DNA from: a virus
DNA: 40,346 nt
Strand: one strand, 5' to 3'
UHGV virus genome: UHGV-0260710
Shown here: piece by piece, positions 1 through 40,346 of the stretch
Numbering within the stretch: position 1 is the first letter of the stretch
Layout: every line of letters starts with the position of its first letter
Notes under the pieces: generated by a model
What the model saw: only the letters and a program-made list of their open reading frames with translations
What the model was told of the DNA's origin: nothing
Database searches by the model: none
Program-made: the position numbers and the translations under genes

Positions 1-422
1 CGCTCACCAGTTACCGGACTTGTAGTCCAATCGTCATGGAATTTAGCACCTAGCAACTTCAAGAATTTAATGTGAGACTTATTGCCTGACCACACGTAGT
101 TCCAGATGGTCCCGTATTGGTCTAACATTAAGTCCCTGTACTCAGAGATACGCTTTATGAACTCTCGCTTCTCTTTAGGTCTCAGCTTATAGACCAGACC
201 GGAAGTCAAGAACCATACGTTATCCCCTTGGTTTCCACCATAGGCAAACACTTCGCCTACACCGTTAGTTAAAACCACAGATGACGGAGATAGGTGCTTA
301 AGCAGTCTTTCAGAGAGACCAACGGTTGACCCGTAGTTTGCTTTGCACTCATTAACATCATCTGCTGAAAGATGCCACAGAAAGTATTGGACATCTGGTT
401 CCGTAGCCTTGCGAATATACAT
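1..422 (-). CDS. gp13: Internal virion protein A (gp13-like), 3' end runs off window start; ATG at 420-422 with AAGGAG RBS
   Basis: Hand translation from 422 gives MYIRKATEPDVQYFLWHLSADDVNECKANYG... with no stop for 140 codons; lies after gp12 and before gp14 (at the window end) as in T7. Confidence 0.6.
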   Translation of the reverse strand, partial: MYIRKATEPDVQYFLWHLSADDVNECKANYGSTVGLSERLLKHLSPSSVVLTNGVGEVFAYGGNQGDNVWFLTSGLVYKLRPKEKREFIKRISEYRDLMLDQYGTIWNYVWSGNKSHIKFLKLLGAKFHDDWTTSPVTGE

Positions 423-451
423 AAAGTCTCCTTATAACCTTAAGGGCCTAT

Positions 452-474
452 AGTCCCTATAGTGATAGTTAAGG
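452..474 (-). promoter_or_regulatory. Phage RNAP promoter (phi13-like), CCTTAACTATCACTATAGGGACT
   Basis: Family motif between gp12 stop and gp13 start; flanked by a perfect 10-bp inverted repeat GGGCCTATAG (444-453) / CTATAGGCCC (480-489). Confidence 0.7.
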
Positions 475-498
475 TAAATCTATAGGCCCTTCAATAAG

Positions 499-2856
499 TT
501 AGACGGAACGAGCTTTCTTAGCGTATGACGCCTCCCAGCCACAGCCAACGATGGACACTGGGGTAGGATAATCTGACTCTAAGGTTAGACTCGTGGTTAA
601 TGCGTTACCATTCATAGCGAAGCGATACTGACCATCCCCAATGTTGGTAGTCCCGATGGTTTGCTGACCAAGGGTGTACCCATTAAAGGTGTTCACGAAC
701 TCCCGCTCACCGTTTCTGACAATGAGTCTAAGAGCGCCAGTGTCCTTGTAGTTGACCCAAGCCCGACGAAGTTGTAGGCGTCCAGTGTCTTCAGACTGAG
801 TGCCACTCTCGTCTTCAATCTTAATAAGGAACCGTGAGAACTTGTAGGACATCAGATAAGACCGTCCGATGAACACTGTACGTCCCGACCAATCGCCATT
901 GAGCATAGCCACAGTTGAGATGTCGGTCAGTTCACCAAGGTCCACATAGGCACCTTGACTGTCAATCAGATAGTACCGACCGGGAGACGGAGCGTTTCCA
1001 CCATAAGCAGAACCAATGTCGACCGTAGTCTTATAGGTGTCAGCGTTATATGAGCCAATTGGGATTACCATAGACACCTTGGAGTCAACGTGGAGTCTAT
1101 ACGGCTCTAATGGAAAGTCAGTTGCCTCCTTGATGAACTTAAGGTGCTCAAGGTCCACGCCGCCTTGGTGCTGACGAACAATGAACATGGTAGAGCCAAT
1201 CGACGCAGACGCCAGAATCTTATCAGATTTAGGGAACTCCCAGTGCGACCAAGAGGCTTGAAGCTGTACGCCGTCCTTAAACAAGAACTTGTAGATGTAG
1301 ATTCGGTTGTATGCACCTGTAGAGTTGACGCAGATGTAGTTCTCAGTCCCTGTACCTTGAATGTCAAACACCCCGTTAGGGATATAGGACAGTACGTGGC
1401 CAGTGGTATCATCGGCATCCTTCACGTCAGACACATCTGCTACAGCGAAGTAGCGCTTAATGCTGGTGAATGACCCACGAGGAGCTGAGAAGAAGACTGA
1501 GCGTCCTACAGCGAACGGTCTGGCATTATCGCCTAAGGCAAACTCTGAGCCTACATCAAGCTGGATAGACTTCGAGGTAAGGACCCCTGAGCTTGTCATC
1601 ACGAACTGCACCTCATCTGACCAAAGTAGTAGCTGCTCACTAAACGGAACGGCATACTTAAGGATTGAGATTCTAGGGTGACTTACAGCTACGTCAATAG
1701 GATCATCATCACTCAGTGTAGCCACACTCTTAGGGAAGAACGCAAAGTAGCTGGCTGAACGGCTCATGATTACGTTCTCTCCTGACAAGAACCCAAGCCT
1801 GTTCCTGTAGAAGAACACATCGTTAATCGTAGCATCCACGAAGCTAGGCATAGGGTTTGTGTCATCATTACCAGCACCACGCTTAGACCAGTCCAGAGTC
1901 TTGAGCTCAAAGGAGCCGTCAGATTGTCTCACCAGAGCATGAGGCATTGTGGTGTTATCGAACCCAGTGACCACTCCCGGCTCTACCGTCTCCTTCCACG
2001 TCTTAGTGTTGGAGTCATACATCACGTAATATTCATCGGCGCTACTGTTGGTCTCACCTTGAATCTTAATGATGTACCCATTTGGAGCCGCAAGAGGCAA
2101 CTTAGAGATTGTTTGCACCGTGTCGAGTACTGGGCTGATTAACTGGTTAGCGTAGCCATCCTCCGTCTCCACTGAGTTAATGTCAGTCCCTGAAGGGGCA
2201 GTGATTAACAGGAAGCCAGACCCAAGGTCGAACGTGAAGGTAGGGTAAGCAGCAACAAGAAGGTCTCTCAGAGCTGCACCGATAGCCTGAGCATCAACCT
2301 TAGGAGGGTCATTCTCGGCATCATTACCTGCTGGCAACTTATGCGAAACCTTAACGCCTCCGTTGATTCCTACCTTAAGGGTGCGACCATACTGTCCACC
2401 GCGCAGGTTAATTAAAGCACGAGCTTTACGATTATAACCAGAGTGTGACTTCTCGCTCCCACCTTTAACAATAACCTTACGGTTCACGATGAACGTATAG
2501 TCTGCAACGGTAACGACACGGATGTCATCTCGCGGGTTGGAAGACTTAACGTAATCTACCGCACCGGACACTGAGTATTGATTACCACTCAAGTCAACTA
2601 CCTGAATGTTGGACCCGTTGAACACGATGTAATACTGCTCCTGCTCATCACGGTTAATCAGGTGGAACTTAGGGTTGATCCCAACGTCGATGTTAAGACG
2701 TCTCTTGAAGACTGTAGGTGGGCGCTTCTGGAGGCCATCACTCTCGGATGACCAGCAGTTAACCTGTGCCTCGCCTTGGTCTGAGAACCTCAGTATATCA
2801 GGCTGCTGGCTAATGCCACCTTTAAGGTTCTTGATTGATTGAGTAATTAGTGGCAT
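499..2856 (-). CDS. gp12: Tail tubular protein B (gp12)
   Basis: 785-aa ORF; size and position match T7 gp12 (794 aa); follows gp11. Confidence 0.9.
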   Translation of the reverse strand: MPLITQSIKNLKGGISQQPDILRFSDQGEAQVNCWSSESDGLQKRPPTVFKRRLNIDVGINPKFHLINRDEQEQYYIVFNGSNIQVVDLSGNQYSVSGAVDYVKSSNPRDDIRVVTVADYTFIVNRKVIVKGGSEKSHSGYNRKARALINLRGGQYGRTLKVGINGGVKVSHKLPAGNDAENDPPKVDAQAIGAALRDLLVAAYPTFTFDLGSGFLLITAPSGTDINSVETEDGYANQLISPVLDTVQTISKLPLAAPNGYIIKIQGETNSSADEYYVMYDSNTKTWKETVEPGVVTGFDNTTMPHALVRQSDGSFELKTLDWSKRGAGNDDTNPMPSFVDATINDVFFYRNRLGFLSGENVIMSRSASYFAFFPKSVATLSDDDPIDVAVSHPRISILKYAVPFSEQLLLWSDEVQFVMTSSGVLTSKSIQLDVGSEFALGDNARPFAVGRSVFFSAPRGSFTSIKRYFAVADVSDVKDADDTTGHVLSYIPNGVFDIQGTGTENYICVNSTGAYNRIYIYKFLFKDGVQLQASWSHWEFPKSDKILASASIGSTMFIVRQHQGGVDLEHLKFIKEATDFPLEPYRLHVDSKVSMVIPIGSYNADTYKTTVDIGSAYGGNAPSPGRYYLIDSQGAYVDLGELTDISTVAMLNGDWSGRTVFIGRSYLMSYKFSRFLIKIEDESGTQSEDTGRLQLRRAWVNYKDTGALRLIVRNGEREFVNTFNGYTLGQQTIGTTNIGDGQYRFAMNGNALTTSLTLESDYPTPVSIVGCGWEASYAKKARSV

Positions 2857-2865
2857 AGGCTCTCC

Positions 2866-3093
2866 TTAAATCATACTCATTAGGACGTATCCATCAGCGA
2901 TGTCACCAACGTCAGCAATGTGGACAACCTTACGCGCTACCTGTTGTCCAGTATACCCGTTGTCCCACTCATTCAGGATAAGCCAATCGCCAACCTTAAA
3001 GTCCCGGTCGTTAAGTCTCATCTCTGCTGTCTTTAGACCTAGCTGTACCGGACCAAAGTGCTGGCGGTGAATCTTCAGGTTGTGACTAGCCAT
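2866..3093 (-). CDS. Small ASCH/DUF3850-like protein inserted between tail tube genes
   Basis: 75-aa ORF; start overlaps gp11 stop (TAATG); pattern HxLKI...F..V..G.K..E.R.NDRDF.VGD.L.L.E.....YTG......V..I....D.....GYV.MS resembles DUF3850 as I remember it. Confidence 0.55.
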   Translation of the reverse strand: MASHNLKIHRQHFGPVQLGLKTAEMRLNDRDFKVGDWLILNEWDNGYTGQQVARKVVHIADVGDIADGYVLMSMI

Positions 3094-3659
3094 TAGTCCC
3101 TCCCGATGTCAGACATCATGTTGTAGCGACCAGTGTCCATCTCATACTCCATAACCTGCTGATAGAGTTCTGCTTCCTGCTCACGAAGGTATAGCTCTGA
3201 CTCTGGGCTACCGAAGAACTTAGCGTTGAACTCACGGCTAGCTTTAGTGACGATGTAGTCCCTGAAGACCACAGGCATCTCGGAGAATGGCTTCATCTCC
3301 ACAAGCTCTACCGTGATAGGGTCGGTGAAAGTGGTTGACTGAGTGGATAGGTCGTACAGGTATCCACCCATGTTGCTGTAGTAGCTGGTGGCCCCAGCAG
3401 TCATTACACGAAGGTATGATGGCAAGAATCGAATCCTATTGTCTTGGACATCAGGTGTCAGTACAGCAGCTTCGTTGATGTTAAAGTTCCAGCCTTTAGC
3501 TTGGACCTGACGATTGACACGATGTAGTATACGTTGAGCGTTAGAGACGTCAGCGTTCCCCTCGTCAAGCTGTAGGACTGCTGGTTCACCGATAGCAGCT
3601 AACATATCGTTGATGGCGTCTAAGTCATCGTTAGCATTCAGTGGAATGTATTGAGCCAT
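3093..3659 (-). CDS. gp11: Tail tubular protein A (gp11)
   Basis: 188 aa; alignable to T7 gp11 (e.g. INDMLAAIGEP.., RGW.FNI.E, FRDYIVTKASREFN); downstream of Tphi. Confidence 0.9.
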   Translation of the reverse strand: MAQYIPLNANDDLDAINDMLAAIGEPAVLQLDEGNADVSNAQRILHRVNRQVQAKGWNFNINEAAVLTPDVQDNRIRFLPSYLRVMTAGATSYYSNMGGYLYDLSTQSTTFTDPITVELVEMKPFSEMPVVFRDYIVTKASREFNAKFFGSPESELYLREQEAELYQQVMEYEMDTGRYNMMSDIGRD

Positions 3660-3679
3660 AAGTCTCCTCTCACTTTAAG

Positions 3680-3720
3680 CAAAAAACCCCTCAAGCACCC
3701 GAAGGCACCCAAGGGGTTTC
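3680..3720 (-). terminator. Tphi-like intrinsic terminator after capsid gene
   Basis: Minus strand AACCCCTTGGGTGCCTTCGGGTGCTTGAGGGGTTTTTTG: GC stem-loop plus T6 run, near-identical in layout to T7 Tphi. Confidence 0.75.
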
Positions 3721-3722
3721 AA

Positions 3723-4897
3723 TTAGTTGTTGGACTCAGCCAGTTTAGCGGCCCTGTTCGCAGCACGAGTACGCGCAGCTTTCTGTTGAGGAGTTAGGGT
3801 CTCCTCTTCAGGTGCAGCCGCTACTGTAGCGACGTTAGGTTGGCTAAAGGTGCTTACGCCGCTGGGCTGAAAACCAGTGCGCCAGCCGCTTCAGGACGCA
3901 GACCACCGTGACCCATAGCGTACTTACCGACAATCAGGTCACCCTGAGCATCGACGTCGCGGTCACGTTCCAGCGCCAAGTCACGCAGCTTAACGGTACC
4001 CACAGCAGAACGGTGAGAGAACAGACCAACAACGTTGTCCAGAGCAACTTTAACGTCACCAGTAGCAGTATCGGGGAAGGCGTGCTTCTGACCAGTCGCA
4101 ATAGTGATACCATCATCACCACGAGTTTCGCCAGCACCACCCTGAGTCAAGTGTGGAACTTCGACAACAACGAAGCCCATCACGTTACGGATGTTACCAG
4201 TCTCTGGGTCAATCAGCGCAGCATAGTTAGCAGCGTTAGGCATCAGAGCCGCGAGGATTGCAGAGTAGTTGTCCGGCGTGGTGTAGAAGTAACGGTCGCC
4301 AGCAGGAACGTAGTTGGAGGTCAGCTTCGCACGAGCAATGGTCAGTTGACCGATGATTGCTTCGCCCAGTTTAGCCGGGGTGTCGAGGTCAGCTTTCTTA
4401 CCAACTTCCAGTACGGACGCAGTACCCAGACCAGCGATGTTCTCATTGGATGCAGCTGGGAGGTTACACAGGATAGCCATTTCAGCAAGAACAGCACCAT
4501 CGGCAGCGATAGCCAGAGCTTCACCCAACTGGTTGGAATACTCGCCAGCCACGTCATAGTGGTTCATAGCGTCTTCAATGTCGAAAATCATCACATCGGC
4601 AGTCAGCAGACCATCAATGGTAATCACTTTCTCGGTATGTTTGATACCTTTACGTTTATCGGACAGTCGCTCGCCCGGAGCCAGATACACACCAGAGGTG
4701 CGACCCATGACCGGGAACTGAGCAGACTTACCGTTCTGAATGGTACGGACAATATGCTTGTCAGCAGTTACAGAGCGGCGAGTGAATGCGGTCAGGACTT
4801 CACCAGCAAATACCTTCAGGAACAACGCTAGAGCGTCGGAACTGGATTTGCCTTTACCTTGGTCTGTACCAATTTTCTGACCCGGAACGTTTGCCAT
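3723..4897 (-). CDS. gp10B: Predicted capsid 10B: -1 frameshift at GGTTTTC (plus 3869-3875) extends 10A by 48 codons to a TAA at 3723-3725
   Basis: Hand translation of the -1 frame after the slippery heptamer is open for 48 codons (QPSGVSTFSQPNVATVAAAPEEETLTPQQKAARTRAANRAAKLAESNN) and ends right at the Tphi stem. Confidence 0.55.
3854..4897 (-). CDS. gp10A: Major capsid protein 10A
   Basis: 347 aa (T7 10A is 345 aa); consensus phage promoter just upstream; terminator downstream. Confidence 0.95.
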   Translation of the reverse strand: MANVPGQKIGTDQGKGKSSSDALALFLKVFAGEVLTAFTRRSVTADKHIVRTIQNGKSAQFPVMGRTSGVYLAPGERLSDKRKGIKHTEKVITIDGLLTADVMIFDIEDAMNHYDVAGEYSNQLGEALAIAADGAVLAEMAILCNLPAASNENIAGLGTASVLEVGKKADLDTPAKLGEAIIGQLTIARAKLTSNYVPAGDRYFYTTPDNYSAILAALMPNAANYAALIDPETGNIRNVMGFVVVEVPHLTQGGAGETRGDDGITIATGQKHAFPDTATGDVKVALDNVVGLFSHRSAVGTVKLRDLALERDRDVDAQGDLIVGKYAMGHGGLRPEAAGALVFSPAA

Positions 4898-4999: not shown

Positions 5000-5022
5000 T
5001 CTCCCTATAGTGATAGTTTAGT
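5000..5022 (-). promoter_or_regulatory. Phage RNAP promoter (phi10-like), ACTAAACTATCACTATAGGGAGACC, +1 ~5005
   Basis: Best match to family consensus including GGGAGA initiation region; immediately upstream of capsid gene. Confidence 0.8.
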
Positions 5023-6005: not shown

Positions 6006-6028
6006 TGTTCCTATAGTGATAGTTTAGG
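6006..6028 (-). promoter_or_regulatory. Phage RNAP promoter (phi9-like), TAAACTATCACTATAGGAACACC
   Basis: Consensus motif overlapping the 3' end of the portal gene, as T7 phi9 does. Confidence 0.7.
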
Positions 6029-8826: not shown

Positions 8827-8849
8827 AGTCCCTATAGTGATAGTTTAGT
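8827..8849 (-). promoter_or_regulatory. Phage RNAP promoter (phi6.5-like), AAACTATCACTATAGGGACTTT
   Basis: Consensus motif in intergenic region. Confidence 0.7.
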
Positions 8850-10873: not shown

Positions 10874-13045
10874 TCAATGGCACTCTTTCCATGTTGGTCC
10901 AATCTTACCCTCCGTATCAAGCTCACACTTGAAGTTATAGAATAGTCCAACCTCTCTCATGGCTTCCTGTGCGATTCGAACTACATCCTCGGCAATTTCC
11001 TGAGTACGACACGCGATTTGTAATTCGTCGTGAATCCAAGCCATTAACGCAAAGTCTCCATCCCAGCCGTTGCCATAACCAGCCTCCTCAAGTTTCTTCT
11101 CAGTCAGCACCATCCAGTGCTTACAGACTACCGCACCATCACCTTGAAGTAATGCGTTCAGTGCTGAGTGTGGAGACCGGATGTGGATACGGCGACCATC
11201 AAGTCCACGCAGCCAACGGCGTTTCCACTTGACGATGTTCTCTCCGTCTACCCACTTAGAGTCTGAGATTAACGTATTACTCACAGCTTCCCTGAGGTCC
11301 TTGATGGCTGGTGTACCCTCAATGAATTTCTTCATGAGAGCTGAACCTTCCTTCTTACCACCTCCGACTATCAGTCCAATCTTAGCAGCACCTGCACCAT
11401 ACAGGAACGCATAGATGAACGTCTTAGCGTTGTTACGGAAAGCATCATGTTCATGGCTCGACTTGTCGCGTGGGACGTTAGGTGCTAATCCAGCGTTGAC
11501 TGCGTTTGCCCAGTGGATGTCACCTTCGACCACAGTCTTGGCGTATTCACCACCATCAAACGGAGCAGCTCGGTTCCCCAGACAACGAAGCTCAAGACCT
11601 GAAGCATCCACACCTACTTGAATCCAAGGGTCTGGCTTACCATCCTTCTTGTTCCACGCTGCACCGAAAGCACCACGGCAAGTCTCACCATACGGAGCAC
11701 CATTAGCCGGGACCTGAGCCATGTTTGGTGAGCTATGGGTCGCACGTCCTGTTACTGCACCACATGGGTTGATTGAACCGTGCATACGTCCGTCTGGACC
11801 TACAAGTTTCAACCATGCGTTCTTACCTTCAGCCGCCTGACCGATGCGCTTCTGGACCACCAGATACTCACGGACCAGCTCTACGCAAGCCTGAGCCTCT
11901 GCGTCTGGTAATTTAACGTGTTCTAACGTCTCGTCATCGACTACAGGTTTCCCGGTGTCAGTGAAGTCCACAGGATCCCAGCCACGCTCCATCAGGACTT
12001 TCGCTAAGTGGTCTCCGCTTCCCGGATTAAACTCAACGTAAGTGATTGGAGTGAATGGCGCTCCTTCCATCGTGTCTCGTGAGTCGAACTCGCAAGGCTC
12101 CAGACCTAAGCGTTGAGCTTTGTTCTTCGGCTTCTTGAATACTGACCCGACCTTAGGATACACGACTCGTGGATACTTCGGAAGGTCCTTACCTGTCCGT
12201 GGGTGCTTGAAGAACTCCTTGCCACCCTTCGGTGAATACCAGCTACCGAAAGTCGAACGCAGCTTGTCCAGCAACTCTGCACGTTTGACGGTGAGTTCAC
12301 GATATAAGCCTTCGACCATCTCGGTATTCATCGGATAGCCGTTACGTTCCATCTTCGCACAGGTCCACGCAGCATCATGTTCCAGACGCAACGCATAAAT
12401 CTGTTCGAAAGCGAACTGTTCAGACTGGAAGTAATACTTGTCAGTCAGGAACTTCTTGAACAATGACAGTGTGACCACAACGTCCTGAACGTTATAGTCC
12501 AGCATCTCCTGAGACGGGAACAACCATTCGTCCCCCGCCTTATATTCGATACCTTCGGCCTTGCACTTGGCAACGTAATCGTGTTTGTACTCACCCTTCA
12601 TCTCACCGAGACGATAGCCCCAAGCCTCAAGAGACTGGCGTCCCATCATCTTAGGTGGCAGACGACCAGCTTTCACCGCGCCCATGTCTGAGAACTTAAT
12701 GTTTGGATACATCAAGCGGCCCAGCACCAAGGTATCAATCATCTTGTGTTTCGGGAAGTTAAATCGTTTCCCAAAGTACAAACGCTTCAGCTTGTCTATA
12801 GCCGGGACGTCATAGTTGATACCGTTATGGAAGACCAGCATACCCGTAGGCGTTGCAGCAATTTCTTCCACCTTCTGTACATACTCTTTGAAGCCACCGA
12901 CGATACCGACCATCGGCGCTACCCCATACTTAAGGGTCTCATTCGACTCGGCATTAATCAGGACCCCACAATGGAACTGGGACACGGTGTCAAGGAGACC
13001 GTTGGTCTCGATGTCCGAACCCCAAATATCCTTAAGGTCAAACAT
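10874..13045 (-). CDS. gp5: DNA polymerase (gp5, family A)
   Basis: 723 aa; long collinear matches to T7 gp5 (FHNG..YDVPA, IDTLVL.RL, EAWGYRLGEMKGEYK, YNVQDVVVT, GSW..PKGG, RTGK.LPKYPR, GRATH, DASGLELRC, NAKTFIY.FLYGAG, KGLDGR..H.RSPH.ALN.LLQ, WIHDE.Q..CRT, LDTEGK.GP.W..CH). Confidence 0.95.
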   Translation of the reverse strand: MFDLKDIWGSDIETNGLLDTVSQFHCGVLINAESNETLKYGVAPMVGIVGGFKEYVQKVEEIAATPTGMLVFHNGINYDVPAIDKLKRLYFGKRFNFPKHKMIDTLVLGRLMYPNIKFSDMGAVKAGRLPPKMMGRQSLEAWGYRLGEMKGEYKHDYVAKCKAEGIEYKAGDEWLFPSQEMLDYNVQDVVVTLSLFKKFLTDKYYFQSEQFAFEQIYALRLEHDAAWTCAKMERNGYPMNTEMVEGLYRELTVKRAELLDKLRSTFGSWYSPKGGKEFFKHPRTGKDLPKYPRVVYPKVGSVFKKPKNKAQRLGLEPCEFDSRDTMEGAPFTPITYVEFNPGSGDHLAKVLMERGWDPVDFTDTGKPVVDDETLEHVKLPDAEAQACVELVREYLVVQKRIGQAAEGKNAWLKLVGPDGRMHGSINPCGAVTGRATHSSPNMAQVPANGAPYGETCRGAFGAAWNKKDGKPDPWIQVGVDASGLELRCLGNRAAPFDGGEYAKTVVEGDIHWANAVNAGLAPNVPRDKSSHEHDAFRNNAKTFIYAFLYGAGAAKIGLIVGGGKKEGSALMKKFIEGTPAIKDLREAVSNTLISDSKWVDGENIVKWKRRWLRGLDGRRIHIRSPHSALNALLQGDGAVVCKHWMVLTEKKLEEAGYGNGWDGDFALMAWIHDELQIACRTQEIAEDVVRIAQEAMREVGLFYNFKCELDTEGKIGPTWKECH

Positions 13046-15406: not shown

Positions 15407-15429
15407 CATCCCTAAGGTGATAGTTTAGG
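15407..15429 (-). promoter_or_regulatory. Variant phage promoter (TAAACTATCACCTTAGGGATGG; two mismatches at -4/-3)
   Basis: Conserved upstream half of the promoter family; upstream of the HNH 3.8-like gene. Confidence 0.45.
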
Positions 15430-17055: not shown

Positions 17056-17753
17056 TAGAAGTCGTAATCGCCACCAGAGCCAGAGTCGTCACCACCTTCG
17101 GAACCATCGTCACCGAAGTCATCAGACCCGAAGTCACCATCGGTTGACGCTTTGTAGCCAGTACCAAGGTCTTCATCATCACCCCAGCCACCATCGCCAC
17201 CAGCACCATCACCTTTCCATTCTTTCAGTTCTACCAGAAGGCAGGACTCAAGCTGGAGCTTAACGCTTGCACCAGTCGCAGCGTTCCACTTGAACGGCAG
17301 GACTTTGAACTTGACCTTCAGCTTAGACCCAGCGCCAATATTCGGGACGTCACGGATGAGTTTAGCATCGGTGTCGTAGAACCGTAATACGATAGGCTCG
17401 GACTTGCCGTCTTTCAGGTAAGACGCAAAGCATTTGAACTTCAGGGTAACAGTACCGTCACCATTCTCAATCCACGGCATATCGCCTTCACGAGGCTCGA
17501 TAGGCTTCTTGCCACGCTGAACCTGAGGTGGGTTCTTCTCGTGGTCTGCGAGTGCTTTCGCATACGCATCGTCGTGAATCTTCTGCAAGACATCAATCAT
17601 CTTACGGACCTTCGGGTCGCTCAGGTCGAACGTCAGGTTAACCTTATGCTCACCACGCTCGTTAAACTTGGTGTCTGCTTTGTTCAGCCATGCGTAGGGT
17701 TCAACGATACCAGCTACCGGAGTGGTGAAAGTCTTCAGTTGCTCTTTAGCCAT
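17055..17753 (-). CDS. gp2.5: Single-stranded DNA-binding protein (gp2.5)
   Basis: 232 aa, same length as T7 gp2.5; acidic C-terminal tail ending DF; shared blocks (EPYA, NPP.V.RGKKP..P.EGDMP, NGDGT.T.KFKC.AS, GSKLKVK, W....GASVKLQLES..LVEL). Confidence 0.9.
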   Translation of the reverse strand: MAKEQLKTFTTPVAGIVEPYAWLNKADTKFNERGEHKVNLTFDLSDPKVRKMIDVLQKIHDDAYAKALADHEKNPPQVQRGKKPIEPREGDMPWIENGDGTVTLKFKCFASYLKDGKSEPIVLRFYDTDAKLIRDVPNIGAGSKLKVKFKVLPFKWNAATGASVKLQLESCLLVELKEWKGDGAGGDGGWGDDEDLGTGYKASTDGDFGSDDFGDDGSEGGDDSGSGGDYDF

Positions 17754-17792: not shown

Positions 17793-17815
17793 CTGTCCTA
17801 CAGTGATAGTTTAGG
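17793..17815 (-). promoter_or_regulatory. Variant phage promoter (TAAACTATCACTGTAGGACAGA; -3 G)
   Basis: Family motif overlapping the gene 2 3' end, upstream of SSB gene (T7 has phi2.5). Confidence 0.55.
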
Positions 17816-18642: not shown

Positions 18643-18665
18643 TTGTCCTATAGTGATAGCTTAGG
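18643..18665 (-). promoter_or_regulatory. Phage RNAP promoter (TAAGCTATCACTATAGGACAAC)
   Basis: Family motif immediately downstream of the early terminator. Confidence 0.65.
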
Positions 18666-20693: not shown

Positions 20694-20716
20694 TAATCCT
20701 ATAGTGATAGTTTAGG
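20694..20716 (-). promoter_or_regulatory. Phage RNAP promoter (TAAACTATCACTATAGGATTAG)
   Basis: Family motif upstream of gene 1.1, as T7 phi1.1A/B. Confidence 0.7.
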
Positions 20717-21247: not shown

Positions 21248-23929
21248 TTAAGCGAATGCAAAGTCTGAAGACAGGATGTCTTCGATATTCAGTTTGCCTT
21301 TCTTCGGAAGCTCAGGCAGCTTGTCGCGCTGGCTCTCGTGAAGCTGGTATTCGAACTGCTCGTAGAAGTCAAGCAGCACGTCGTTGTCGCGGTATGTCTC
21401 GACCATCGTCTCACGGACACCACGGAACAGATACTCAGCGTCAGCCGGGATGGTCCCGAAGCTATCATGAATCACTGCGAACGACATCACGCCATATTTG
21501 CGGTGAGTGTGGACTACAGTCTTGCGTAGGTGGCTACCATCTTGTGAGTGGACGAAGTTCGGGCTAATGCCTGACTCCTGCTTGTGCTTGTCCAACTCTT
21601 TCTTCGTGCCTTTATTGACGGTAGGCTGAAGGTTGAATGACCCTAAGAACATCAGGTTCAGACGAGTGGTATCCTTCTTGCGGTATTCCTGCCAGACCGG
21701 GAAACCATCAGGTGTTACCCAGTGTACAGGAAGGCAAGGCTTCAGGATTTCCCCGGTCTTTTTGTCCTTCACTTCAGCAGCCAGCAGCTTGGCAGCACCC
21801 TGAAGCCACTTCATCGCGTCAACAGCAGCAACTACGGTCACACTCACAGCTTCCCAAATCATCTTAGCCATGAAGCGAGACGCTTGGCTTGGCTCGGTGA
21901 ACATAGCGCCAGACCCTGAGTCAATCGCTGGAATCACGATGTCCTCGTACACTTGGTCTGCGAAGCCGTACTCTTTCGACCCATAGGCCAGAGTCATGAC
22001 TGAACGCTTAGTGACCTTTCGTGACATACCGTAGGTCAGCCACTGGCGGGCCAGCTCTCGTGTCCCCAGCTTGATACGTTCGGTAATCTCACCCGTTTTC
22101 TTGTCCTCGTGAGTTACCATCTCGTTGTCCGTGCCGTTAACCAGCAGGACTTTAAGCTCTTCCTCAATGCGGTCAGACACTATGCGGTAGATGTCTTGTA
22201 CCTTACCGGAAGGCGTCAGGTTTACTGCATGTCCACCGATGTGGTCACGAAGCATCGCGCTAAAGTGCTGAATCCCAGAGCAGGACCCATCGAATGCTAT
22301 CGGCAGCGAGCAGGAGTAAGACAATCCGTGATGCATTACGCCAGCATACTCGAAGCAGAACGCTAGGAAGCAGAACGGAGAGTCTAACTTACCCCACCAC
22401 TCAATGCTGTCCATCGGTGCCTTAGCGGTAGCCATGATGTTGTCGTGGTTATCTTCCACCCACTTGATGCGCTCCTCGAAGGTTACTTTATCAATACCCG
22501 CACAGTTTGCACCGTGGACCTTCAGCCATTTGAAACCATCAGCACCAATAGGCTTACCGACTGCCAGAGTCAGGAGACCCTTTTGCATGTCGTTACCCTG
22601 AGGGTTGAACATCGGAACAGCGTAGACACGACCGCGCCAGTCCATATTGTACGGGAACCAGATGGCCTTGAACTGAGAGAACTTGTTCGCTTGGTTAACG
22701 ATAAAGCTCAGTGACAATCTACGCGACTGCCGAGCCTTCTCTCGGCGGTAGATACCAGCAGCAGCCTTCTTCCATGCCTTAAGTTCCTCTTCAGTCTCAC
22801 CCGCATAGTCTTCAGGCTTCAGTGGCTCCATCTGAGGGATGTCATCAATAGGCGTGTTGTTCAACTTCTCGACCATGTTCACCACGTCCAGAACCTTCTT
22901 GTTCACTTTCCAAGGTGTATTCTGGATGATGTTAACAGCGTCATATACTTCAGGCATGTACACGTCTTCGTAACGTGCCACCGCAGACTTAGACCCTAAG
23001 CGAATCAGTGGTAGTGGTCTGCGTCCTTTGGCCCAGTACCCACCTCCTACGACACCAGTCCACGGCTTAGGTGGAACGACGCAAGGCTGGTAGACTGGAG
23101 CGATACCCGCAAGGCTGAAGCCTCGTTGCGCCATCTTCTTGACCCAGAAGTCTGACAGGTGGACCATCTCGACGTCAGCCGCTGCATTGCCAGCACCGTA
23201 ACGCTTAAGCTCGACCAGTTGTGTTGACTGGATGATAATCTCAAGCATCTTGATTCCAACGTGGACAGCCTCGGTTGGACTCCAAGTCCCCCACGCATCT
23301 TCCAGTTGGCCTTGCTCAAGCATGGATGCCTCAACCGCTTGCATGTAGGCTTTCTTGTAGGATGCCCCAGCTCGCTTGTTCAGGTTCTCGGCTATCGCCT
23401 TCTTGAAGTGCTCCTTCTCCTTGTCACGGATGCGACCGAAGCGGATTTCGTCCTCAAGTGTGCGACCTATCGCGGATGCCATCGGTGTAATCGGTATCCC
23501 TTCAGGCTTGACCAGCTTGGAGAGTATGACCTTCAGTATGATTACCGCAGCAGACTCGCAAGAGATACGCAGAGAGCGGTCCTTGACGGCCTTCTCTTCA
23601 GTGCTCAACATGGTGAACGCTACGCTAGGACGAGAGGTTGACAGCTTCCCGTCTGGGCCTTCATGCCACTCCCTGACGGCTTGCGCAATCTTAGGGACCA
23701 GAGTCTGCATCAAAGGCTTGGCGACCTGATTGTCTGCCAGTTCCCCGCGCTCAGTCTGTCGCTCAAGGTTCTTGATGAAACGTCGCTCGCCTTCAGTGTA
23801 TGCCTCATGCTCAAGCTGAAGCTGTTTGACTGCAAGGTCTTGCCCGTAATGGTCAGCCAGCAGGTTAAACGGCTCAATAGCGTTAGACACATCAGAGAAG
23901 TCGTGTTTGTCAATAGAGATGACGCTCAT
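21248..23929 (-). CDS. gp1: Single-subunit DNA-directed RNA polymerase (T7 gene 1 family)
   Basis: 893 aa; extensive collinear identity with T7 RNAP (DHYG, FQPCVVPPKPWTG..GGGYWA.GRRPL, RYEDVYMPEVY, WFPYNMDWRGRVYAV.MFNPQGNDM.KGLLTLA.GKPIG, SPFCFLAFCFEYAGV.HHGLSY.CSLP.AFDGSCSGIQHFSAMLRD, VTKRSVMTLAYGSKE.GF, HKQESGI.PNFVHSQDGSHLRKTVV, IHDSFGTIPADA, ends SDFAFA). Confidence 0.98.
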   Translation of the reverse strand: MSVISIDKHDFSDVSNAIEPFNLLADHYGQDLAVKQLQLEHEAYTEGERRFIKNLERQTERGELADNQVAKPLMQTLVPKIAQAVREWHEGPDGKLSTSRPSVAFTMLSTEEKAVKDRSLRISCESAAVIILKVILSKLVKPEGIPITPMASAIGRTLEDEIRFGRIRDKEKEHFKKAIAENLNKRAGASYKKAYMQAVEASMLEQGQLEDAWGTWSPTEAVHVGIKMLEIIIQSTQLVELKRYGAGNAAADVEMVHLSDFWVKKMAQRGFSLAGIAPVYQPCVVPPKPWTGVVGGGYWAKGRRPLPLIRLGSKSAVARYEDVYMPEVYDAVNIIQNTPWKVNKKVLDVVNMVEKLNNTPIDDIPQMEPLKPEDYAGETEEELKAWKKAAAGIYRREKARQSRRLSLSFIVNQANKFSQFKAIWFPYNMDWRGRVYAVPMFNPQGNDMQKGLLTLAVGKPIGADGFKWLKVHGANCAGIDKVTFEERIKWVEDNHDNIMATAKAPMDSIEWWGKLDSPFCFLAFCFEYAGVMHHGLSYSCSLPIAFDGSCSGIQHFSAMLRDHIGGHAVNLTPSGKVQDIYRIVSDRIEEELKVLLVNGTDNEMVTHEDKKTGEITERIKLGTRELARQWLTYGMSRKVTKRSVMTLAYGSKEYGFADQVYEDIVIPAIDSGSGAMFTEPSQASRFMAKMIWEAVSVTVVAAVDAMKWLQGAAKLLAAEVKDKKTGEILKPCLPVHWVTPDGFPVWQEYRKKDTTRLNLMFLGSFNLQPTVNKGTKKELDKHKQESGISPNFVHSQDGSHLRKTVVHTHRKYGVMSFAVIHDSFGTIPADAEYLFRGVRETMVETYRDNDVLLDFYEQFEYQLHESQRDKLPELPKKGKLNIEDILSSDFAFA

Positions 23930-23997: not shown

Positions 23998-24020
23998 TGA
24001 GTCCTATAGTGATAGTTAAG
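23998..24020 (-). promoter_or_regulatory. Phage RNAP promoter directly upstream of the RNAP gene (TTAACTATCACTATAGGACTCA; +1 ~24003, 73-nt leader)
   Basis: Family motif between the last small early ORF and the RNAP ATG; leader contains an 11-bp direct repeat AAGTGAAAGAC x2 and an AAGGA RBS. Confidence 0.6.
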
Positions 24021-24706: not shown

Positions 24707-24832
24707 TCAGTACCCACCTGTCAGCGTTATGGTCAGGCTATGGTGATTCGCCACGTAGCAAGCCCCGCGCTTCATCATCTCGTAGCATCCATCGTAGAAC
24801 GCCTGTTCACTGCTATAAGTTATCTGGTACAT
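24707..24832 (-). CDS. Small hypothetical early ORF (41 aa)
   Basis: ATG 7 nt after the stop of the upstream 66-aa ORF; hand translation MYQITYSSEQAFYDGCYEMMKRGACYVANHHSLTITLTGGY. Confidence 0.3.
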   Translation of the reverse strand: MYQITYSSEQAFYDGCYEMMKRGACYVANHHSLTITLTGGY

Positions 24833-24838
24833 TGTTGC

Positions 24839-25039
24839 TTACCCTTGGAATCCTACAGTGTTGGGCCATAGCGTAACGGTTTTACGCTTGGAGGTGATAA
24901 GGTCGGTAAATGATATCCGATATGCTGTGCCCTCAGGTGCTAGTATGTTGCCCACATAGCTCTTGGTAGTTATGCGTATTGGACCATCGCCTACCAGATA
25001 TACGGACTTAAGTCTATCAATTATATCGTTGCGTTTCAT
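24839..25039 (-). CDS. Hypothetical early protein (66 aa)
   Basis: ORF whose ATG overlaps the stop of the upstream 53-aa ORF (ATGA). Confidence 0.45.
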   Translation of the reverse strand: MKRNDIIDRLKSVYLVGDGPIRITTKSYVGNILAPEGTAYRISFTDLITSKRKTVTLWPNTVGFQG

Positions 25040-27117: not shown

Positions 27118-27140
27118 CTTCCCTATAGTGATAGTTAAGT
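27118..27140 (-). promoter_or_regulatory. Phage RNAP promoter near the right genome end (phiOR-like), TTAACTATCACTATAGGGAAGACC
   Basis: Family motif downstream of the last gene, reading toward the genome end. Confidence 0.65.
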
Positions 27141-27623: not shown

Positions 27624-29390
27624 TTAGTGGAACGTAATGTATGACCCTAGTCCCAGCTCGTCGTCCGTATCGTGAGTTACCCGGACCCCATTGTCCCAGA
27701 ACTCAGTGTGGATGGACTCGAAGCCTTTCCGTGGGTTCTCCATCTGTTCCTCCAGCCACTCCTCAGTGACTTCACGTTCGCCCTTGTTGGCATCCTTAGC
27801 CATAGACTCAACGAAGAACTGTACACCGATAGCCAGCGCATCAAGTCGGTCATCGTGTGCCAAGGCGCCACGTTCACGAGAGATACGTGTCATCTGGTAG
27901 AAGAGAGAGTAGATAGGGTTACGAACACCATCCTTATCAGAGGCCGACTGGTAGTCTTGGACGATAGCAGCAGCGTTAACGATAAGTCGGTGAGACCCCA
28001 TGATAGGCTCCAGAACGTCACAGATGCGTAGTTCTTTCTGCCCCTTACTCTTCACTTCAGTTACAGCCGCAGGATGTATACGGGCCGCTACAGGCTTGAA
28101 TAGCTCAAGGTACATACCATCACCGAAGTTACCCTCAATGACGTATTCGTTGACCTTCCACTTACGACCAATCTTAGCCAGTGCTTCAAGCGTAGAGTCT
28201 TCATAACCACCACGCATGCCGCCAACTTCCATAGCGAAGATGTAGCCGTTGAGCTGGTACAGTACCGCATATCCAGTTTCATCCTTACCACGACCACTAG
28301 GGTCAATGACCAGAATCTTCTGGGTGTACGAACTGAAGGCAGAACCTACAGTCTGATACGTGTGGTATGAGTCTCCCATGAGTCCAACGTTAGGAACGTC
28401 CTCACGCTTGTTCTGAGGGTTTGGCAGCCATTGGTAGACCATTGGGCTGGACGCTGGGTCCAAGTCTGCTACGATAAGGTCACGGAGCTTCAGAGGGTAC
28501 TTCTCGGCATCACTCAGGTTCGGGTTAAGCATGAACTGTAGAGCGAAGCCAGCTTTACCGTAGGACAGCTCACGTTCCTTCAGGTCAGTATCGTCGAATC
28601 GAACTTCATCGGTCGGACGCCAGTAGTAGGCCTCAGGGTCCTCTTCAAGCTCTGCCTGAAGCATCGGTGCCAGACGGTAGCCGTAAGACTGCCAGTCCTT
28701 CTTATCACGTGGATAACGAGCAGGCCAGATAGTAGTGGTGTACCCACGGCCTTCCAGCTCACGATACAAGGTCATCTCGTTCTGAGGAGTACCCAGATAG
28801 ATGATTGTACCTCCCGGCTTCAGGATAGCGTCGAACTCTTTCACAAGCTCTGATAGACGGTCTCGTGCAGCCTGAGTCGCTGAGTTGTTCGGAACCTCCA
28901 CGTCATCGGCAATCAGGATGTCAGCACGACTACCAGTCAACTGACCAGTGATACCAACGGACTTAACCGAAGGTGAGTGGTCTGGCTTGGCGGGTCCAAC
29001 GTCAAAACTGATAACCGCATCTCGCTGTCCCTGCTTAGGTTTGAGTTCCTGAAGCTGAGGCATGAGGTCGATGATTCGCTTGATGAAGATGGAGTTAGCA
29101 TCGGCTCGTTCCTTTGATGCCGACACAATCATGAACTTCAAGTCTGGGTTGTTCCATAGCTTCCAGACCACAAAGCCACAGGTCAGAAACGACTTGCCAA
29201 TACCACGGAAAGCCTGAAGGATGAAGCGGCGATTATCCCCAGCAGCCAGCTTCTTACACATATCTATCTGGCAGCGGGTTGGAACCGGAAGGCTTAGCGC
29301 TTTCCAGAGAACGAAGATGAAGAACACGAAGTCGTCCTGCATCCTTTGGGTCATTTCTGCCTGTCTTTCAGCTGGTGTTTTCTTAGACAT
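27624..29390 (-). CDS. gp19: Terminase large subunit (gp19)
   Basis: 588 aa; near-collinear with T7 gp19 ([124 protein letters not shown]). Confidence 0.95.
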
Positions 29391-33521: not shown

Positions 33522-33544
33522 GTTTCCTATAGTGATAGTTTAGT
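33522..33544 (-). promoter_or_regulatory. Phage RNAP promoter (phi17-like), TAAACTATCACTATAGGAAACG
   Basis: Family motif overlapping the gp16 3' end, upstream of the tail fibre gene as in T7. Confidence 0.7.
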
Positions 33545-40313: not shown

Positions 40314-40346
40314 ACGTCCTCCTTAGAGATTGTGAATAATTGAAAA

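Follow-up and report, generated by a model that had tools for sequence, protein, structure and literature searches.

A minimal ASCH-domain (DUF3850) gene translationally coupled to gene 11 in the tail operon of a T7-like Kayfunavirus

DUF3850 is described in the literature as a domain of unknown function, and the family comprises 5,143 clusters at 50% identity (E<=1e-3). One fusion of a ParB-CTPase to DUF3850 binds CTP via its ParB-like part (PNAS 2025, PMC12704722 / bioRxiv 10.1101/2025.10.10.680097). ASCH enzymes have a semi-conserved octapeptide, G-x-K-x-x-(E/T)-x-R. The Lys and Glu of this octapeptide are essential for removal of N4-acetylcytidine (ac4C) from tRNA by TthASCH, EOLA1 and TRIP4 (bioRxiv 10.64898/2026.02.27.708502), and Glu74 of YqfB and Tyr81 of TthASCH matter for nucleoside hydrolysis. 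Two studies disagree on ac4C deacetylation by Glu-type ASCH proteins, and ZmASCH, which is also of the Glu type, is a ribonuclease instead.

Here we describe a DUF3850 gene in a window of 40,346 nucleotides, the whole stretch of viral DNA that was analysed, which belongs to a T7-like Kayfunavirus (97% to Escherichia phage TM1). The ORF listing of the window gives an ATG ORF of 75 aa on the minus strand at 2866..3093, stop included. Its product, MASHNLKIHRQHFGPVQLGLKTAEMRLNDRDFKVGDWLILNEWDNGYTGQQVARKVVHIADVGDIADGYVLMSMI, has a mass of 8.5 kDa. The initial annotation had placed a 75-aa ORF between tail tubular proteins A and B with its ATG overlapping the gp11 stop, and both the ORF listing and the flanking genes, identified with Pfam, agree with this placement (Table 1). 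That annotation gave no strand; the ORF is on the minus strand. The 3' end of gp11 reads ...GGGAGGGACTAATGG, and we found that the gp11 TAA (3095..3093) and the ATG of the DUF3850 gene (3093..3091) have one base in common, forming TAATG. In K1F, which is without the DUF3850 gene, the element equivalent to the GGGAGGG of this gene is the Shine-Dalgarno of gp12. In the window gp12 starts with the ATG at position 2856 on the minus strand, and its AAGGAG is similar to the TAAGGAGG/TAGGAGG spacers in T7 and SH3. An antisense ORF of 56 aa (2900..3070, plus strand) was rejected as a candidate; it has no family match and is enclosed by an oppositely oriented gene under purifying selection.

Table 1. 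Coordinates in the window of the DUF3850 gene, its motifs, its neighbours and the associated expression signals.
Feature	Coordinates	Strand	Basis or remark
DUF3850 / minimal ASCH gene	2866..3093	-	orthologue of CR44b gene 11.05 and EcoDS1 AS9_0040
ASCH octapeptide G19-L-K21-T-A-E24-M-R26 ('GKER' type), codons 19-26	3016..3039	-	from translation
DUF3850 signature loop N28-D29-R30-D-F-K-V-G35-D36, codons 28-36	2986..3012	-	family conservation
GGGAGGG Shine-Dalgarno of DUF3850 gene	3098..3104	-	within the final codons of gp11; seen in sequence
AAGGAG Shine-Dalgarno of gp12	2862..2867	-	shares bases with the DUF3850 TAA (2868..2866)
gp11, tail tubular protein A (adaptor)	3093..3659	-	Pfam Tube PF17212, E 3.6e-46
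gp12, tail tubular protein B (nozzle)	499..2856	-	Pfam Phage_nozzle PF25675, E 0
phi10-type phage-RNAP promoter	5002..5018	-	exact match to AACTATCACTATAGGGA; nearest upstream of DUF3850 gene
phi13 promoter	454-470		next promoter downstream of the phi10-type site
T-phi-like intrinsic terminator, gene 10/gene 11	3688..3705	-	sole terminator-like site in 2300-4100

We found that the 75-aa protein matches PF12961 (DUF3850) with an E of 2.3e-19 and 69.8 bits across profile positions 2-76 of 77, and PF04266 (ASCH) with an E of 1.9e-5 and 25.7 bits across profile positions 2-60 of 103 only. Both scores exceed the curated gathering thresholds of Pfam, which are 22.9 for DUF3850 and 21.2 for ASCH. The protein also matches PHROG 986, 'RNA-binding protein' (2.7e-35), and the sequence of PDB 3IUW (E 3.8e-10, about 40-45% identity), and it has no match in NCBIfam. 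The AlphaFold (AF2) model has a pLDDT of 93.7. When the model was used as a Foldseek query, 3IUW_B took the top rank (E 1e-7, TM 0.88, rmsd 1.6 Å over 75 columns), followed by the ac4C amidohydrolase YqfB, PH0355, TTHA0113, ZmASCH, TRIP4 and EOLA1. The YqfB match had a probability of 1.00 and a TMq of 0.64, with a target-normalised TM of only 0.49. The Pfam, PHROG and 3IUW sequence and fold matches bear out the DUF3850/ASCH-like family named in the initial annotation. The protein is not a complete ASCH domain, as it stops after the fifth strand, and the C-terminal helical part of ASCH, with the equivalents of YqfB Glu74 and TthASCH Tyr81, is absent. It belongs to DUF3850, a 'minimal', truncated form of the ASCH domain that folds as a PUA-like beta-barrel.

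The translated ORF exactly reproduces the residue pattern reported initially, and the family signature H-x-L-K, G-x-K-x-x-E-x-R-x-N-D-R-D-F-x-V-G-D, L-x-L-x-E, Y-T-G and G-Y-V is complete in the window protein. A word-index search for homologues gave 26 near relatives, and diversity was reached with an exhaustive representative search. Among 58 diverse homologues, H4, L6, K7, G19, K21, E24, R26, N28, D29, R30, G35, D36, L40, E42 and G49, all present in the window protein, are each conserved in at least 85%, and ten polar residues are conserved in at least 89%. Within the octapeptide this set shows no variation at K21 or R26 and has E24 in 96% of its members; in the signature loop the values are 89% for N28, 98% for D29, R30 and D36, and 93% for G35. 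A set of 72 fusion proteins shows no variation at H4, K21, E24, R26, N28, D29, R30, D36 and E42, and 22 copies, down to 43% identity, all retain the signature residues. Every other copy examined has L25, and the window copy has M25 instead. In an alignment the octapeptide is in register with YqfB G19-R-K21-T-I-T24-I-R26, and F-K-x-G-D then follows in both proteins. The window protein is near-neutral, with a pI of 6.38 (family median 6.4) and a net charge of -1, which disfavours generic polyanion binding. Since the polar residues are so highly conserved in a near-neutral protein, we favour a pocket rather than a surface.

The comparison covered 14 Kayfunavirus copies. All are intact and 75 aa long, their mean pN/pS is 0.175, and the most divergent pair has a dN/dS of 0.12 (Fisher p = 7e-10 for synonymous excess). 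Judged by its DUF3850 score, intact orthologues and purifying selection, 2866..3093 is a real gene, beyond a chance ORF. The CR44b orthologue has lost K7, N28, D29 and R30 and also carries E24D, the LET1 orthologue has lost N28 and R30, and a metagenomic copy, L014, carries R30L. The CR44b copy is 45% identical to the window protein, versus 81% and 76% for the flanking genes. Both the CR44b and the LET1 ORFs remain open at 72-74 aa, and their coupling is unchanged. Since some orthologues are without signature residues, the canonical activity is not indispensable here.

When related phages were checked for the equivalent insertion, about 170 GenBank relatives were found to carry the DUF3850 gene at this site, where it is labelled "RNA-binding protein", "DUF3850" or "hypothetical". 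Most of the genus Kayfunavirus has a DUF3850 gene between genes 11 and 12; this is no peculiarity of the present genome. For many of these phages GenBank/RefSeq already lists the gene, its family and its position, so that the assignment is a correct annotation and no discovery. A literature search by product labels found no paper on the Kayfunavirus DUF3850 gene. The gene is present in EcoDS1, CR44b and LET1 and absent from T7, K1F and SH3, and in an even sample about 14 of 60 relatives are without it. Its absence from T7, which had been claimed before, holds: in T7 nothing is annotated between the end of gene 11 at 24818 and the start of gene 12 at 24842. In both T7 and the Kayfunavirus SH3 the gp11 stop is followed by a short spacer with a Shine-Dalgarno and then by the gp12 ATG.

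An alignment of K1F, EcoDS1 and T7 indicated that the K1F clade differs from the carriers by a precise 237-bp deletion that fuses the ATG of gp12 with the stop of gp11. In neighbour-joining trees of gp11 and of gp12, K1F is nested among carriers. Because of this nesting the K1F clade has probably lost the DUF3850 gene, and gene loss is the most likely history of this clade. Compared with the arrangement in T7 and SH3, the gene would have integrated precisely between the stop of gp11 and the Shine-Dalgarno of gp12 in an ancestor of most Kayfunavirus, and the K1F clade would have removed it afterwards by the 237-bp deletion. As the K1F clade is without the gene, the gene is dispensable for plaque formation.

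A search for phage-RNAP promoters found none between 470 and 5002. Because none intervenes before the phi13 promoter, the phi10-type promoter must drive genes 10, 11, DUF3850 and 12. The only terminator-like site in 2300-4100 lies upstream of gene 11, and in that interval the DUF3850 gene has no terminator of its own; the EcoDS1 annotation has terminator phiTE at the equivalent place between genes 10 and 11. Three sigma-70-like matches in 2300-4100 were not above shuffled expectation, and none was found upstream of the ORF at the gp11/ORF junction. There is also no compositional shift: the ORF has a GC of 0.49, against 0.47-0.51 for the sequence on either side. We propose that the DUF3850 gene would be transcribed from the phi10-type promoter via read-through of the T-phi-like terminator, and that its translation would be coupled to that of gp11 by the TAATG overlap and the Shine-Dalgarno within gp11. 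T7 genes 11 and 12 are likewise transcribed by read-through.

The gene had been called a moron-like insertion. This holds in that it is lineage-specific and dispensable, being absent from K1F, SH3 and T7, but fails for a promoter and a terminator of its own and for a GC deviation. It is a moron only loosely and no classical moron. Lambdoid morons are, like the window gene, extra, dispensable and lineage-specific genes amid conserved structural genes. However, they have their own promoter and terminator, whereas the window gene is without either and is expressed by translational coupling.

Taken together we consider it reasonably likely that the window carries a genuine accessory gene that is translated and whose product is a soluble base-pocket module, probably GKER-like, and not a tail component. 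The function predicted as most likely is that of a small ASCH module that binds or hydrolyses bases. Binding of nucleic acids by the window protein, as the initial annotation suggested, is inferred from the superfamily, and the 'RNA-binding protein' label of RefSeq and PHROG 986 is a homology transfer onto this near-neutral protein. In the mechanism that we propose a polar pocket of the small soluble module would hold a nucleobase or nucleotide; this pocket would be formed by K21, E24 and R26 of the octapeptide together with the family-specific H4, K7, N28-D29-R30, D36 and E42. The module would recognise, and probably hydrolyse, an N4-acylated cytosine (ac4C, for example), either in free nucleosides or within host RNA; a reader role without any catalysis would be almost equally likely. 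More specifically, DUF3850 could be a minimal active ASCH enzyme that acts here as a late eraser, made in parallel with the tail proteins, of N4-acetylcytidine or of a similar N-acyl base in host tRNA, rRNA or DNA, although we regard this version as rather unlikely. Such a predicted late ac4C eraser might possibly be carried into the next cell. For a family whose other members are encoded in early modules, late expression beside tail genes is unusual.

The barrel could instead bind RNA, DNA or a modified base (m6A, ac4C) as a regulator or shield without chemistry, which we consider possible but somewhat doubtful. PUA-like domains (SRA, EVE, YTH and ASCH) are classic readers of modified bases, ASCH has been predicted to be an m6A reader with phage links to N6A-methyltransferases and ParB (PMC4738411; PMC12707154), and the ASCH domain of TRIP4 has been crystallised with dsDNA (9KYL). 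The RefSeq label implies such a role, DUF3850 genes have DNA methyltransferases among their neighbours, phages commonly encode ParB-CTPase-DUF3850 fusions, and the truncated domain is without the C-terminal residues that YqfB and TthASCH use for nucleoside hydrolysis. On the other hand the protein has no basic surface at a pI of 6.38, and the near-invariant Lys/Glu/Arg, which are catalytic in relatives, together with the Asn-Asp-Arg, His, Asp and Glu resemble an active site more. A role in the tail, as an assembly chaperone or as a minor virion or ejected protein, would explain the position between gp11 and gp12 and the translational coupling to gp11. It would also be consistent with late expression from the phi10 transcript, and small proteins are easily overlooked in virion mass spectrometry. 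However, homologues elsewhere occur in replication, recombination and early modules and none in tail modules, the same gp11/gp12 tail is built without a DUF3850 gene in the K1F clade, SH3 and T7, and the fold is that of ASCH, with no significant structural-protein neighbours of the AF2 model in the fold comparison. The CR44b record flags gp11 and gp12, not 11.05, with 'matches in mass spectrometry analysis'; this evidence consists of the GenBank record notes only, and the negative result is weak because the protein is only 8.5 kDa. On genomic context and presence/absence we rejected a chaperone or structural role in the tail, which is highly improbable.

We also considered that the gene might be a decaying passenger, acquired by chance, with a frame kept mainly to deliver ribosomes to gp12 while its own function fades. 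The clean deletion in the K1F clade fits this, as do the R30L change in one metagenomic copy and the CR44b and LET1 copies, which are without family-invariant residues yet keep an intact ORF and coupling. In the main clade, however, purifying selection is clear (pN/pS 0.175; dN/dS 0.12, p = 7e-10), and the signature residues stay invariant in the 22 copies mentioned above. Moreover gp12 has a good Shine-Dalgarno of its own, so the DUF3850 frame is not needed for its translation (compare SH3 and T7). Decay of this kind is improbable. The same low probability applies to a counter-defence role, in which the protein would remove or mask a modified base or nucleotide signal sensed by a host defence. 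Presence/absence varies inside one genus, DUF3850 proteins are enriched in phages and prophages, P2 Orf91 adjoins the tin/old exclusion genes, and the ParB-CTPase survey raises, as a speculation, anti-defence roles of the phage fusions (PMC12704722). Against this, the sole and best match to the PADLOC defence models, PDC-M07B (E 0.0045, 15 bits), is not significant and was taken as noise, and late expression fits poorly with defences that act early.

DUF3850 is a very large, phage-enriched family with a solved structure and a strikingly conserved polar pocket. Kayfunavirus offers a natural experiment on its function, as near-isogenic phages differ in the state of the gene: it is present in the window and EcoDS1, cleanly deleted in the K1F clade, never present, or represented by a spacer only, in SH3, and decayed in its signature loop in CR44b and LET1. 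Removal of ac4C from tRNA by Glu-type ASCH proteins provides a concrete candidate activity. If DUF3850 were an active minimal ASCH enzyme, this would be the first function for the family across phages, prophages and ICEs.

Within the genus the closest counterparts are orthologues of 74-75 aa, most of them 91-99% identical to the window protein. EcoDS1 AS9_0040 (YP_002003774.1, 'RNA-binding protein') has the position and the TAATG coupling seen in the window. CR44b gene 11.05 (CDM21569.1) also has this position and coupling but is strongly diverged, and its signature loop is gone. PE3-1, ST31, LM33_P1 and JSS1 ('activating signal cointegrator') carry orthologues between genes 11 and 12.

Outside the genus, P2, Kagunavirus, T1-like, Listeria, Enterococcus and Gordonia phages encode DUF3850 domains with 35-60% identity to the window protein. 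In P2 this is Orf91 (NP_046796.1), whose gene follows replication gene A next to tin/old. The DUF3850 genes of those phages lie in early, replication or recombination modules, whereas the window gene lies in a late tail operon. At 50 other viral DUF3850 loci the neighbours were helicases, primases, a gpA-type nickase, DNA methyltransferases, NinB/NinG and HNH endonucleases. The proteins of those phages are often extended at the N- or C-terminus (DUF551, ParB-like and others), whereas the window protein is a bare domain. Among the 72 nearest long homologues the fusion partners were only DUF551 (9), a dATP/dGTP pyrophosphohydrolase (1) and DUF7415 (1), none of which is informative about mechanism. 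The ParB-CTPase-DUF3850 fusions of prophages differ from the window protein, which has neither a ParB-like domain nor a parA neighbour.

3IUW, an 83-aa structural-genomics target from Enterococcus faecalis (NP_814290.1, 'activating signal cointegrator'), has both its profile and its fold in common with the window protein. With E. coli YqfB (N4-acetylcytidine amidohydrolase, 9KYF/9KYH) the window protein has the beta-barrel and the octapeptide register in common, and its octapeptide is of the GKER type found in the Glu-type members TthASCH (2DP9), EOLA1 and TRIP4-ASCH. Compared with the ASCH enzymes it is about 30-70 residues shorter and is without the C-terminal helices and the equivalents of YqfB E74 and TthASCH Y81. 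In contrast, the invariant N-D-R loop, H4 and E42 are extra features of the window protein that ASCH proteins do not have.

The initial annotation had placed a 75-aa ORF between tail tubular proteins A and B, with its ATG overlapping the gp11 stop, and we found this arrangement in both the ORF listing and the raw sequence; the translation also reproduced the residue pattern given there. The strand, previously left unstated, is minus for the whole arrangement. Upstream the ORF is flanked by tail tubular protein A of the T7 type (Pfam Tube, E 3.6e-46), downstream by the nozzle, tail tubular protein B (Pfam Phage_nozzle, E 0). We then compared 14 orthologous copies, from the window, EcoDS1 and 12 IMG/VR genomes, and found the gene intact and exactly 75 codons long in 14 of 14. 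Pairwise Nei-Gojobori comparison of these copies gave a mean pS of 0.155 and a mean pN of 0.027 (ratio 0.175). In the most divergent pair, the window and carrier lineage L016, there were 27 synonymous differences over ~50 sites and 19 non-synonymous differences over ~175 sites (dN/dS 0.12, Fisher p = 7e-10). The intact copies together with these two ratios indicate that the DUF3850 ORF is a real gene.

Coordinates of the DUF3850 gene, its junctions and other features (in the window unless another phage is named)
Feature	Coordinates	Strand	Detail
DUF3850 ORF	2866..3093	-	ATG start, 75 aa; ORF listing; translation MASHNLKIHRQHFGPVQLGLKTAEMRLNDRDFKVGDWLILNEWDNGYTGQQVARKVVHIADVGDIADGYVLMSMI
gp11 stop; DUF3850 ATG	3095..3093; 3093..3091	-	one base in common; coding strand ATC GGG AGG GAC TAA TGG CTA
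GGGAGGG Shine-Dalgarno of DUF3850 gene	within gp11, 5 nt upstream	-	raw sequence
DUF3850 stop inside TAAGGAG Shine-Dalgarno for gp12	gp12 ATG at 2856	-	ATT TAA GGA GAG CCT ATG CCA
Met25 codon	3019-3021		TAEMR
T-phi-like hairpin	3688-3705		between genes 10 and 11
Phage promoter matches	454-470, 5002-5018, 6008-6024, 8829-8845, 15409-15425, 17795-17811, 18645-18661, 20696-20712, 24001-24017, 27120-27136, 33524-33540	-	genome promoter map
ORF spanning window ends	1..~440 + 40314..40346	-	159 aa when joined
Junction, spacer state (SH3)			gp11 TAA, 11-nt spacer with TAGGAGG, gp12 ATG; like T7
Junction, gene state (window, EcoDS1, CR44b, LET1)			gp11 TAATG, gene, TAAGGAG, N6, ATG
Junction, fused state (K1F and small clade)			gp11 TAA directly overlapping gp12 ATG
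CR44b gp11.05	22053-22277		orthologue
LET1 orthologue	901-1119		
P2 Orf91	3986-4315		DUF3850 protein
CR44b endonuclease genes 7.7B, 7.7, 7.7C, 3.8A, 3.8B	11851-12252, 17133-17549, 28080-28529, 35742-36179, 37950-38366		predicted
EcoDS1 predicted endonuclease gene 13.5	162-563		

The 75-aa protein matched Pfam DUF3850 (PF12961) end to end (E 2.3e-19, 69.8 bits, cut-off 22.9) and Pfam ASCH (PF04266) over the first 60 of that profile's 103 positions (E 1.9e-5, 25.7 bits, cut-off 21.2). Both scores exceed their cut-offs, and the DUF3850/ASCH-like assignment made earlier is upheld. PHROG 986 ('RNA-binding protein') was matched at 2.7e-35, and an NCBIfam profile search of the protein gave no match. 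The sole solved DUF3850 structure is 3IUW, from an Enterococcus faecalis protein of 83 aa that was a structural-genomics target and is named 'activating signal cointegrator'; the single sequence matched it at E 3.8e-10 and the family profile at 2.4e-26. An AlphaFold2 model built from a 22-sequence input (mean pLDDT 93.7) predicted a five-stranded barrel plus one helix, and Foldseek aligned it to 3IUW with a TM of 0.88 and an rmsd of 1.6 Å. Ranked next after 3IUW by Foldseek were ASCH proteins throughout: the E. coli ac4C amidohydrolase YqfB (9KYF/9KYH), PH0355, TTHA0113, ZmASCH, TRIP4 and EOLA1. When predicted viral structures were compared with the model, the best matches were DUF3850/ASCH proteins from many phages. 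Based on the Pfam and PHROG matches, the sequence match to 3IUW and the predicted fold, the protein is a bona fide DUF3850 member by score, signature residues and fold, and a truncated 'minimal' ASCH domain, which has the score, motif and barrel of that superfamily in incomplete form.

Over the surrounding 1.3 kb, identity is 97% to Escherichia phage TM1 and 96% to EcoDS1, PE3-1 and ST31, all members of the genus Kayfunavirus (Autographiviridae, Studiervirinae). By tblastn the same insertion was recovered in related phages: 169 phage records encode the protein at ≥60% identity, each time adjoining the tail tubular genes. These records label it 'hypothetical protein', 'RNA-binding protein', 'DUF3850 domain-containing protein' or 'activating signal cointegrator', and in CR44b it is gene 11.05. 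Thus public annotation already records the gene, where it lies and which family it belongs to; our literature search found no paper discussing the Kayfunavirus DUF3850 gene. At position 25, within the octapeptide of ASCH, the window copy carries Met, where all other Kayfunavirus copies examined have Leu25 (TAELR); since this position varies across the family (I/L/M), the change is probably neutral. Three records labelled as Gram-positive or Acinetobacter phages, MT350292.1 (Enterococcus phage EFA-1), PV615262.1 (Acinetobacter phage vB_Aba_01KA) and OR786095.1 (Staphylococcus phage MBBL139), are 86-96% identical in DNA to this enterobacterial Kayfunavirus region, which suggests host mis-assignment or contamination in the submissions.

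As the initial annotation had stated, T7 has no gene at this position, only a 23-nt spacer between genes 11 and 12. Within Kayfunavirus we found three states of the junction: spacer, gene and fused. Besides K1F, the fused state is present in 216Ecol046PP, pO2, Zappy, SR04, phiYIO1-1, ZG49 and ST1749. Alignment of K1F with the window showed a single clean 237-bp gap running from the gene's ATG through to the gp12 ATG. In neighbour-joining trees of gp11 and gp12 K1F is nested among carriers, and its gp11 is 98% identical to those of the carriers EcoDS1 and vB_EcoP_F; more distant lineages (L010, L012, L015 and L016) also carry the gene. On these trees, which cover 16 taxa and are not a full reconstruction, the simplest history would be a single ancient insertion, placed after the stop of gp11 and before the Shine-Dalgarno of gp12, and a later precise deletion, making secondary loss in the K1F clade likely. 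Of the 213 matching records we sampled 60 at even spacing, and the gene was absent from ~14 of these.

Some copies have decayed. In Citrobacter phage CR44b, gp11.05 has 45% identity to the window protein, against 81% for gp11 and 76% for gp12; it has lost K7 (K7I), N28, D29 and R30, carries E24D, has PSIPEI in place of LNDRDF in the signature loop and scores only 26.6 bits against DUF3850. In the orthologue from Pectobacterium phage LET1, RPYDEGY replaces RLNDRDF, and one metagenomic copy carries R30L. The CR44b and LET1 ORFs are intact, still coupled and at the same junction. The K1F loss and the decayed copies indicate that the gene is accessory, dispensable for growth (K1F) and drifting in some lineages. 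The three-state junction, the likely K1F-clade loss and the decayed copies are what this analysis adds, together with the testable activity described below. Kayfunavirus genomes also have several genes for predicted homing endonucleases or endonuclease VII wedged between conserved genes, so that operons for structure and replication in this genus commonly contain small accessory insertions.

Searching with the EcoDS1 phage RNA-polymerase promoter core AACTATCACTATAGGGA (up to 3 mismatches) gave 11 matches in the window, against 0.07 expected by chance, and no promoter of this type between 470 (phi13) and 5002 (phi10). Close to the gene there is just one terminator-like hairpin, lying between genes 10 and 11, and the gene has the same GC (0.49) as its flanks. 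Because the gene has no promoter or terminator of its own nearby and the GC of its flanks, it is, from the sequence, expressed via the gene 10-11-12 late transcript and translational coupling and not as an autonomous cassette. The term 'moron-like' used earlier therefore holds only for presence and absence among relatives, the one feature of a phage moron that this gene has. The window is a complete genome in circularly permuted form: when its two ends are joined, an intact ORF (MYIRKATEPDVQYFLWHLSADD...) results between gp12 and gp14, the gene 13 position, and no exact terminal repeat >10 nt was found at the window ends.

In the literature we found no function demonstrated for any DUF3850 protein. 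The family is large (5,143 clusters at 50% identity, E<=1e-3), and ten residues (H4, K7, K21, E24, R26, N28, D29, R30, D36 and E42) each reach 89% conservation or more among 58 diverse stand-alone members, with most of the ten invariant in 72 fusion proteins. This is an unusually dense polar set for 75 aa. The protein (pI 6.38, net charge -1) and the family (median pI 6.4) are near-neutral and so unlike a generic nucleic-acid-coating protein. In 50 other viral loci DUF3850 is surrounded by early genes and genes of replication or recombination (helicase, primase, gpA nickase, DNA methyltransferases, NinB/NinG and HNH endonucleases); ParB-CTPase-DUF3850 fusions are common in phages, and in P2, Orf91 follows gene A as the last ORF of the early replication operon. 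Orf91, long unassigned and adjoining the tin/old exclusion genes, is 40% identical to the window protein and has a short N-terminal extension. A tail-structural role, as the position between two tail genes might imply, is unlikely; in the CR44b record, the notes on virion mass spectrometry mark gp11 and gp12 and not 11.05. Taken together, the conserved polar residues, near-neutral pI, octapeptide, truncated ASCH domain, gene neighbours and CR44b notes best support a small soluble module holding a nucleobase or nucleotide in a polar pocket.

The ASCH work of 2025-2026 points to a concrete, testable activity for such a pocket module. G19-L-K21-T-A-E24-M-R26 is the ASCH octapeptide, in register with K21/T24/R26 of YqfB, which form its ac4C amidohydrolase site. 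In the Glu-type ('GKER') proteins TthASCH, EOLA1 and TRIP4 the octapeptide Lys and Glu are essential for tRNA ac4C removal (bioRxiv 10.64898/2026.02.27.708502); an earlier study reported that Glu-type proteins lacked ac4C-removing activity, and ZmASCH acts as a nuclease on ssRNA. By analogy the module would most likely act in the Glu-type manner, as a hydrolase or eraser of an N4-acylated cytosine, with a non-catalytic reader role almost as probable. We regard it as improbable that DUF3850 is a minimal ac4C-type eraser borne by phages. DUF3850 lacks the C-terminal third of ASCH, the source of E74 in YqfB and Y81 in TthASCH; an invariant N-D-R loop of its own may stand in for that third.
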